DNA from: a virus
Lineage: Duplodnaviria > Heunggongvirae > Uroviricota > Caudoviricetes
Direction: 5' to 3' (one strand)
Length of the DNA: 37,226 nucleotides
Virus record (IMG/VR): IMGVR_UViG_2529292736_000004
A model generated the notes under the pieces. It was not told the origin of the DNA, ran no database searches, and saw nothing but the letters and a program-made list of their open reading frames with translations. The position numbers were made by a program, and so were the translations under genes. Below are positions 4,578 through 5,563 of this stretch, piece after piece (position 1 is the first letter of the stretch; every line of letters begins with the position of its first letter).

Positions 4578-5237
4578 TCACCCAAACGTCTCTTCAGGCC
4601 ACTGACTAGCGATAACTTTCCCCACAACGGAACAACTCTCATTGCATGGGATCATTGGGTATTGTGGGTTTAGTGGCTGTAGAAACACCTGACCGCTATC
4701 CCTGATCAGTTTCTTGAAGGTAAACTCATCACCACCAAGTCTGGCTATACAGAAATCGCCTGGCTCAACAGCCTGCTCAGGGTCAACCAGAATTAACATC
4801 CCGTCAGGAAAGCTGGGCTTGGAACCTGTTGGTGCGGTCATTGAGTTACCTTCAACCTCAAGCCAGAATGCAGAGTCACTGGCTTTTTTGGTTGTGCTTA
4901 CCAATCTCTCCGCATCGCCTTTGGTAAAGGTTCTGAGTTCTGGAGAGAACATCCCAGCCTGAACATGAGAAAAAACAGGGTACTCATATTGTTTTTTAAC
5001 TGGGGCCGATGAGTATTCGCCAACAGGTGAAAATGTCCCGTCGTGGTTGAATGATATGTTATCAATACCAAGGTATTTAAACACCACACCAATATCACTA
5101 AGAGATGGATGACGAGATCCGCGCAACCAGTGTCCAATCCCACCCTGCGTCATACCTAGCTCTTCGGCTAACTTCTCTTGAGTTATGCCGAGCTCTTTCA
5201 TTCTGGATCTAGCCAGTTCATACCATTTCATTTTCAT
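4578..5237 (-). CDS. cI: CI-type repressor: lambda-identical LexA-like (S24) C-terminal domain fused to a different HTH N-terminal domain
   Basis: C-terminal ~150 aa ([22 protein letters not shown]...[26 protein letters not shown]...WPEETFG) matches lambda cI; N-terminal ~80 aa do not. The track ORF begins with a TTG at 5279; the first ATG in context is at 5237, so the exact start is uncertain. Confidence 0.85.
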
Positions 5238-5279
5238 GTCCTTATTATTACGCTTTGTACTGGAACCATCCATGCACAA

Positions 5280-5347
5280 TGTGTATTTTTACTTGTATTC
5301 GTAAAGTACATATTGTATTTTTTATTCGTGTTTACTATGGAGGGCAT
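5280..5347. promoter_or_regulatory. Divergent pRM/pR promoter and OR operator region
   Basis: AT-rich 68-bp interval between divergent cI and cro. Contains gtaaagtacatat (5301..5313), the reverse complement of the OL-region motif. Confidence 0.55.
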
Positions 5348-5563
5348 ATGAGCAACCTACGAAAATATCGAGAGTCACTGAATATCTCTCAAACAACACT
5401 TGCTAAGGCAGTTGGATGCACACAGGGAGCTATCGGACATTGGGAATCTGGTCGTCGCTTCCCAGACCTTAAAACATGCCGTGCTCTTGTTGCGTGCCTA
5501 AACAAGTTAGGCGCAAAAGTCAGTCTTGATGACGTGTTCCCGCCGGAACACAAAGCCGCTTAA
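5348..5563 (+). CDS. cro: Cro-like HTH (XRE-family) repressor, 71 aa
   Basis: ATG at 5348 preceded by GGAGG. HTH segment TTLAKAVGCTQGAIGHWESGRRFP resembles the cI N-terminal HTH ([24 protein letters not shown]). Confidence 0.8.
   Translation: MSNLRKYRESLNISQTTLAKAVGCTQGAIGHWESGRRFPDLKTCRALVACLNKLGAKVSLDDVFPPEHKAA

Follow-up and report, generated by a model that had tools for sequence, protein, structure and literature searches.

In the genetic switches of phages 434 and P22, Cro and the N-terminal domain of the repressor are paralogues, and the two proteins read the same operators through near-identical helices. The Hochschild and Ptashne laboratories reportedly engineered repressors in which a 434 or P22 DNA-binding domain was fused to the lambda C-terminal domain. 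Such engineered hybrids are reported to have shown that specificity resides in the N-terminal domain, and cooperativity and cleavage in the C-terminal domain. Among Shiga toxin (Stx) phages, CI proteins that are identical in Eru2 and Eru3 phages have been placed in Clade I, which of the CI clades lies nearest to lambda CI (PMC8951638); the supplement to that study places phages 1717, 2851, F349 and the WGPS phages in Eru2 and Stx2 II in Eru3. Phage Nil2 serves as one reference lambdoid regulatory type (PMC2903704, PMC3349717). Here we analyzed the immunity region of IMG/VR record IMGVR_UViG_2529292736_000004, a 37,226-nucleotide stretch of caudoviricete DNA (hereafter, the window), in which open reading frames (ORFs) for the repressor gene cI and a divergent cro lie at positions 4578–5563, where the original prediction had placed them. 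Our comparisons indicate that the window repressor is a mosaic of two domains, brought together by an old recombination in its hinge, within a predicted lambda-style bistable switch. The immunity module, carried by a lambda-like prophage of E. coli, is very probably the one already described in Nil2, Stx2 II, 1717 and 2851, corresponding to CI Clade I of the Stx phages.

The block running from cI through cro to cII was found at 97%–99.9% nucleotide identity in 57 phage records (coverage of at least 80%) and was present in 588 of 5,426 complete Escherichia coli genomes. Carriers among Stx phages were Nil2, 1717, 2851, YYZ-2008, WGPS4/6/8 and F349, and carriers among isolated lambda-like phages were 2G7b, ev017, ev207, 2B8, PhiR11_1, PhiR57_1 and PhiR63_2. 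The match in E. coli LST200A reached 99.9%, left flank included. In tblastn searches, both cI domains were 100% identical in Stx2 II, WGPS6/8, F349 and PA phages, and the N-terminal domain was 100% identical also in 2G7b, ev017 and others, so the DNA-binding domain, which had been described as novel, is not new. The window thus has the same full-length cI as the Nil2/Stx2-II/1717/2851 immunity type, together with the same cro and operators. It departs from the lambda immunity type in all three of the defining parts: the N-terminal domain with its recognition helix, the operators, and Cro.

Two groups of relatives carry this module on different backgrounds. Nil2 (AJ413274), Stx2 II (AP005154), 1717, 2851 and YYZ-2008 have the same cI and 97% nucleotide identity in cro and cII (97.0%–97.2% over cI-cro-cII), and in the immunity region of the Stx phages the promoters PR and PRM are annotated at the same places as in the window. 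However, these phages belong to the short-tailed Sepvirinae, carry stx and differ in their replication genes (Eru2/Eru3), whereas the window joins the module to a lambda chassis and to the O and P of lambda, and has other genes downstream of cI. The second group (2G7b, ev017, ev207, PhiR11_1, PhiR57_1, PhiR63_2 and the prophages of LST200A and other E. coli) shares the module at 99.1%–99.9% nucleotide identity and the same lambda-type chassis, including lambda O, P, ren and ninB. Its members differ from the window in having mostly other genes in the rex slot, an intact O, and none of the window's insertion sequence (IS) elements. The switch is shared with many Stx2c and Stx2a phages of O157:H7. 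We note that the immunity module has already been sequenced and annotated, and nothing here alters the current understanding of it.

The window cI lies on the minus strand (4578–5237, with its stop codon at 4578–4580) and encodes 219 amino acids from the ATG at 5237, from which residues are numbered here. Pfam assigned residues 11–58 to HTH_3 (1.9e-10) and residues 87–209 to Peptidase_S24 (1.1e-28), the N-terminal helix-turn-helix (HTH) and C-terminal peptidase arrangement of self-cleaving repressors of the lambda cI/LexA type. The cleavage site (A94-G95), the nucleophilic serine of the GNSM motif (S132) and the general-base lysine of FKKL (K175) were invariant in an alignment of this protein with the repressors of lambda, Louie, Oslo and P13374.

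The two parts of cI had very different levels of identity to lambda. The hinge, cleavage site and C-terminal segment (4578–4988, minus strand) aligned by BLASTN with lambda 37227–37637 at 94.9% nucleotide identity over 411 nucleotides, and this patch ends, on its 3′ side, with the cI stop codon. Residues 84–219 were identical to lambda residues 102–237 at 135 of 136 positions, the sole difference being L112 in place of a lambda Trp; at the nucleotide level, changes in the segment are synonymous in 20 cases and non-synonymous in one. An essentially lambda-identical C-terminal portion with the GNSM region had been predicted, and both were found, but its length is 136 residues rather than about 150. 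The rest of the gene (4989–5237, minus strand) encodes a non-lambda HTH_3 DNA-binding domain with the recognition helix TQGGIGHW, whose identity to lambda cI is only 21% over 83 residues of the domain. This domain was called unrelated to that of lambda, which is too strong: the lambda repressor N-terminal domain was among its best matches in PDB (E 4e-4), and the two are assigned to the same Pfam HTH_3 fold despite their low identity.

The transition between the two parts falls in the inter-domain hinge (4986–4997, minus strand), with the Ala-Gly site following some 10 codons downstream. Scored per 10 codons, nucleotide identity to lambda was 10/30 or less before codon 83/84 and 28/30 after it, with the step contained within ~10 nucleotides. 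The two domains also gave incongruent relationships among repressors. Identity of the window to lambda was 21% in the N-terminal domain and 99% in the C-terminal domain, compared with 48% and 80% for the window and Oslo, 25% and 64% for the window and P13374, and 56% and 65% for lambda and P13374. Because of the sharp step in identity and the incongruent domain relationships, recombination inside cI, as proposed in the original prediction, is well supported, and simple unequal divergence is ruled out. Under unequal divergence, cI would have evolved as a unit, its N-terminal domain diverging fast under immunity selection while the C-terminal domain was conserved. The N-terminal domains of repressor families do generally diverge faster, as the comparison of the window with Oslo illustrates. 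However, a rise from about one-third to about 95% nucleotide identity inside ~10 nucleotides, a C-terminal synonymous divergence of only ~5% beside a saturated N-terminal domain, and the grouping of the lambda N-terminal domain with P13374 and of its C-terminal domain with the window leave this explanation with hardly any probability, and we regard it as effectively refuted. For Nil2-type repressors, our literature search returned no paper that spells out this hinge junction or describes a non-lambda N-terminal domain joined to a lambda-type C-terminal one.

The age of the junction can be judged from the flanking DNA. Nucleotide identity to lambda is lower in the C-terminal segment of cI (94.9%) than in the flanks of the immunity region (98.7%), so the junction is old and widely inherited with the repressor type, rather than having formed recently in this prophage.

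As for the direction of the exchange, there are hints that lambda cI itself could be the chimera, having gained this C-terminal domain from a type in which the window combination was native. Leaving identical copies aside, the C-terminal domain closest to that of the window (80%; Oslo, SPN9CC and 103203_sal4) is joined to this same N-terminal family (48%–52%), and relatives of the lambda N-terminal domain have remoter C-terminal domains, with identities of 39%–65% (P13374, 62% N-terminal by tblastn and 64% C-terminal; HF4s, 50% N-terminal and 39% C-terminal). Additionally, C-terminal domains with 95% identity or more to that of the window occurred in 98 phage records, and 62 of them had this N-terminal domain compared with 36 that had lambda's. 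However, outgroups are few, the collection is biased towards Stx phages, the comparison is unrooted, and repeated shuffling could have wiped out any signal of direction. With a sample this small and biased, we consider the reverse exchange possible though somewhat improbable.

The second DNA-binding protein of the switch is also of a non-lambda type. The gene cro (5348–5563, plus strand) encodes a 71-amino-acid HTH_3-type protein and is preceded by a GGAGGG Shine-Dalgarno sequence at 5339–5344. The product matched Pfam HTH_3 (4e-12), not the Cro family, and PDB entry 28tn_A (E 4.5e-17), whereas lambda Cro belongs to its own lambda Cro family. BLASTP of the two Cro proteins gave zero alignment at E ≤ 100, in agreement with the original prediction that Cro is non-lambda. 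When compared with the N-terminal domain of the window cI, Cro showed 35% identity over 62 residues (E 8e-11), and it is an HTH_3 paralogue of that domain.

The recognition helices of the two window proteins, TQGGIGHW in cI and TQGAIGHW in Cro, differ solely at position 4, and both contrast with GQSGVGAL in the lambda repressor. Both helix strings that had been quoted as evidence of this resemblance (TQGAIGHWESGRRFP in Cro) are present in the ORF translations, and the resemblance is that of paralogues. Position 4 is one that, through alignment to P22 C2, we take to correspond to a core alanine in the P22 and 434 structures. The window resembles the 434 and P22 switches in having a Cro and a cI N-terminal domain that are homologous, all-helical HTH_3 proteins with near-identical helices, although sequence similarity to those systems is marginal (E 0.009–1) and the operator sequences differ.

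The Salmonella phages vB_SosS_Oslo, SPN9CC and 103203_sal4 are full-length relatives with the same architecture, having 48%–52% identity in the cI N-terminal domain, 80% in the C-terminal domain and 46% in Cro. Between Oslo and the window, for which these values are 48% for the cI N-terminal domain and 46% for Cro, helix positions 2 and 6 switch jointly in repressor and Cro (TKGAVSHW in Oslo cI and TRGAVCHY in Oslo Cro). A joint change at these positions is expected if they set operator specificity, and a different specificity is predicted for the Oslo type.

Consistent with the non-lambda recognition helices, the window contains its own set of putative operators. Visual inspection of both intergenic regions showed TAC-N5-GTA cores, which were then searched for and lengthened to 17 bp. 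We found six 17-bp sites with a half-site of approximately AAGTACA, three at OR and three at OL: OR1 (5304–5320, AAGTACATATTGTATTT), OR2 (5272–5288, ATGCACAATGTGTATTT), OR3 (5246–5262, TATTACGCTTTGTACTG), OL1 (2978–2994, TAGTACGATATGTACTT), OL2 (3003–3019, CAATACAATTTGTTGTA) and OL3 (3036–3052, TATAACGCTTTGTATTT). In a leave-one-out analysis, in which each site was scored by a matrix of the other five, no site ranked lower than 7th among the 37,210 positions of the window (OR1 ranked 1st, OL1 3rd, OR3, OL2 and OL3 6th, and OR2 7th). The same six positions carry the label 'putative operator' in Stx2 phage II (AP005154), where OR1, OR2 and OL1 are identical to the window sites and OR3, OL2 and OL3 each differ by one base.

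The operators of the window and those of lambda were rejected by each other's matrices. The six window sites scored 16–21 bits with their own matrix but −3.2 to −11.4 bits with a matrix built from the six annotated lambda operators, which gave lambda's own sites 13.5–22.5 bits; in the reciprocal analysis, the window matrix gave lambda operators −11.4 to +4.2 bits. This mutual rejection is the computational basis for predicted heteroimmunity, and it fits the different operator specificity that had been proposed. With operators and recognition helices both unlike those of lambda, the phage should be heteroimmune to lambda. A seventh operator-like site (3150–3166, AAATACAATTGGTTATG, 14 bits) was set aside, as the same sequence occurs in lambda itself. 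It sits in a lambda-homologous patch (3099–3226) near the end of the cI operon and is probably coincidental.

Promoter positions were inferred relative to these sites. The putative PR consists of TTGTAT (5293–5298) and TATTTT (5316–5321) separated by 17 nucleotides, with OR1 overlapping the spacer and the −10 hexamer, and the putative PL consists of TTGATC (3005–3000) and TACTAT (2982–2977), also separated by 17 nucleotides, on the minus strand and overlapped by OL1. The PR hexamers lie within 1 nucleotide of those annotated in AP005154, and this depositor's annotation is the outside support for the inferred positions.

The position of the operators also bears on the start of cI, for which several candidates are available. 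The longest cI ORF opens at a TTG at 5279, and annotations of relatives in the style of PGAP place the start at an ATG at 5273, in which case OR3 would fall within the cI coding sequence. Between the two further candidates, the ATG at 5231 (MKWYEL, 217 amino acids) appears more likely than the ATG at 5237 (MKMKWYEL), because AAGGA lies 7 nucleotides upstream of it, the Nil2 record has a 654-nucleotide gene, and the Oslo homologue begins with MNWYD.

Together, these features suggest a switch that would work in the manner of lambda with a different operator specificity. The HTH_3 domain of cI would bind the six operators at OR and OL and thereby repress PR and PL. The lambda-type hinge and C-terminal domain would provide dimerization and both pairwise and long-range cooperativity as in lambda and, given the 135 identical residues of 136, RecA-stimulated self-cleavage at Ala-Gly by Ser132 and Lys175. 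Cro, which has the same DNA-reading residues, would read the same operators and direct the lytic state, as in 434 and P22. The gene order (N, OL, accessory genes, cI, OR, cro, cII) and the presence of three operators on each side are shared with lambda, whereas the operators are unrelated and otherwise spaced, N and the cII N-terminus are non-lambda, and rexAB is replaced. In design, the repressor matches the engineered hybrids in which a foreign HTH domain was placed on the lambda C-terminal domain, but it is natural, widespread, and accompanied by a co-evolved Cro and operators. It is a clean natural example of a DNA-binding domain, Cro and operators being swapped as a set while the cleavage and cooperativity domain is kept, with the joint in a flexible hinge. 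For annotators, this prophage is lambda-like while predicted not to be lambda-immune, and its induction would probably be lambda-like.

A more speculative extension, which we think rather unlikely, is that the lambda-identical C-terminal domain leads to mixed dimers or higher-order complexes with lambda cI in double lysogens, or alternatively that lambda cI is the chimeric member of the pair. If mixed dimers did form, they could cause dominant-negative cross-talk, mutual titration, and less stable lysogens or coupled induction.

Several observations weigh against our assignment of this region to the described immunity type with a lambda-style switch. Centre-to-centre spacing of the operators is 32 bp for OR1–OR2, 26 for OR2–OR3, 25 for OL1–OL2 and 33 for OL2–OL3, compared with 24/23 and 24/20 in lambda, so lambda-like pairwise cooperativity is assumed. 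A consensus promoter scan gave no hit above threshold at PR, PL or PRM, and the inferred hexamers are weak. In the searchable literature, no experiment was found that addresses DNA binding, cleavage or immunity for this exact repressor. The biochemically studied repressor of BAA2326 is of another type, with a lambda-like N-terminal domain. Finally, the prophage may be defective, as it has a frameshift in O and two IS insertions, although cI and cro are intact.

Two of these points call for comment. We considered the BAA2326 repressor, reported as '61.2% identical to lambda' (PMC5977221), as a candidate for the window protein and rejected it, as it fits the P13374 type; it is described as having a lambda-like DNA-binding domain, without OL or N beside cI (PMC5977221). 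As for operator spacing, OL and OR are not mirror-symmetric about cI, and neither is lambda-like, though the cooperativity domain is lambda-identical.

A defective prophage raises the further possibility that the module is a relic, its reading frames kept but its switch no longer working. A 1-nucleotide deletion in an A-run splits O, and elements of the IS3 and IS66 families lie in the late region. However, the module is intact in cI, cro and cII and in each of its six operators, and these are 99.7%–100% identical to those of isolated phages that form plaques, such as PhiR11_1, 2G7b and ev017; a homopolymer indel could be a sequencing error. Moreover, even a defective prophage still needs its repressor and usually keeps it. 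We therefore judge a relic to be very unlikely and continue to favour an intact module of the Nil2/Stx2-II type. In detail, O is represented by overlapping ORFs at 6034–6564 and 6444–6932, and the deletion lies at ~6490 in the A-run of the ori region (AAAAGAAAAAAG in lambda, AAAAGAAAAAG in the window). LST200A and PhiR11_1 have an intact, 900-nucleotide O annotated. The frameshift could be a sequencing error in the homopolymer, or else the prophage is defective in replication.

The foreign immunity module extends well beyond cI and cro. We compared the early region by BLASTN to lambda 33000–41000, and the structural region by database search. The whole non-lambda substitution spans 1897–5938 and takes in sieB, N and OL, the pair of accessory genes in the rex slot, cI, OR and cro, as well as four-fifths of cII from its 5′ end, with internal lambda-like patches at 3099–3226 (90.6%) and at the 3′ part of cI (4578–4988). 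On either side, the window is 98.7% identical to lambda, at 525–1896 (the gam-ral region) and at 5939–8347 (the end of cII, O, P, ren and ninB). The structural genes from nu1 to J (20.7–37.2 kb, 16.5 kb) are 98.2% identical. On the basis of its structural and replication genes, the chassis is assigned to lambda (Lambdavirus), as the original prediction had it.

The right-hand boundary of the module lies in cII. This gene (5705–6001, plus strand; Pfam Phage_CII, 7e-34) is also a hybrid, with a non-lambda N-terminal portion of ~78 amino acids. Lambda identity in cII resumes at 5939, so that only the last ~20 residues, in the region overlapping oop, are lambda's, and position 5939 marks the boundary. 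At the left end, sieB (1917–2498) and N (2515–2859) are non-lambda alleles. In AP005154, the N gene is annotated as resembling that of phage HK97. With a non-lambda N, antitermination specificity, comprising N and the predicted nut sites, would travel with the immunity module.

A foreign immunity region on a lambda chassis resembles classical laboratory constructs, such as lambda imm434 or imm21, and could in principle have been made in the same way. However, the lambda-like parts of the window are 98.2%–98.7% identical to lambda, not ~100%, and natural E. coli isolates have chromosomal prophages that match the window at 99.9%. The prophage also has a porin gene and IS elements aboard. The probability of a laboratory-made hybrid is close to nil, and this origin is refuted by the divergence from lambda and the matches in natural isolates; a natural prophage with an old, inherited module remains our interpretation.

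Directly downstream of cI, in the slot of lambda rexA/rexB, are two overlapping genes (3225–4531, minus strand). They encode proteins of 180 amino acids (weak DUF6978, phrog_2017) and 258 amino acids (DUF1828, phrog_1960), and the pair weakly matches the PADLOC candidate system PDC-M24 (A, 3.8e-4; B, 5e-7). We consider it a candidate anti-phage pair that may be expressed from the prophage. Most carriers of the immunity region have other genes in this slot, and the homology of most matches stops at the cI stop codon.

Two insertion sequences were found in the late region. An IS3-family element (12426–13737) has the Q/porin region on one side and the lysis genes on the other, and consists of an rve transposase (12469–13359) and an upstream ORF; its 26-nucleotide inverted repeats are 92% complementary, and the repeat sequence resembles that of IS629/IS1203. 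An IS66-family element (~17608–20650) lies just upstream of nu1, with all genes on the minus strand (tnpA-like, 19955–20605; TnpB, 19608–19955; DDE transposase, 18017–19588). Homology to PhiR11_1 ends at 17608. The end of the IS66 element contains a tandem duplication (17608–17985 and 17986–18365) with a period of ~378–379 nucleotides, of which the first 225 nucleotides are identical and the remaining 158 are 97% identical. This duplication could be real or could be an assembly artefact.

The prophage also contains a full-length Gram-negative porin gene (10836–11918, minus strand; Porin_1, 3e-153) downstream of the Q antiterminator. Annotation of relatives describes this gene as OmpC/OmpD/NmpC-like, and it is a putative cargo gene for lysogenic conversion.

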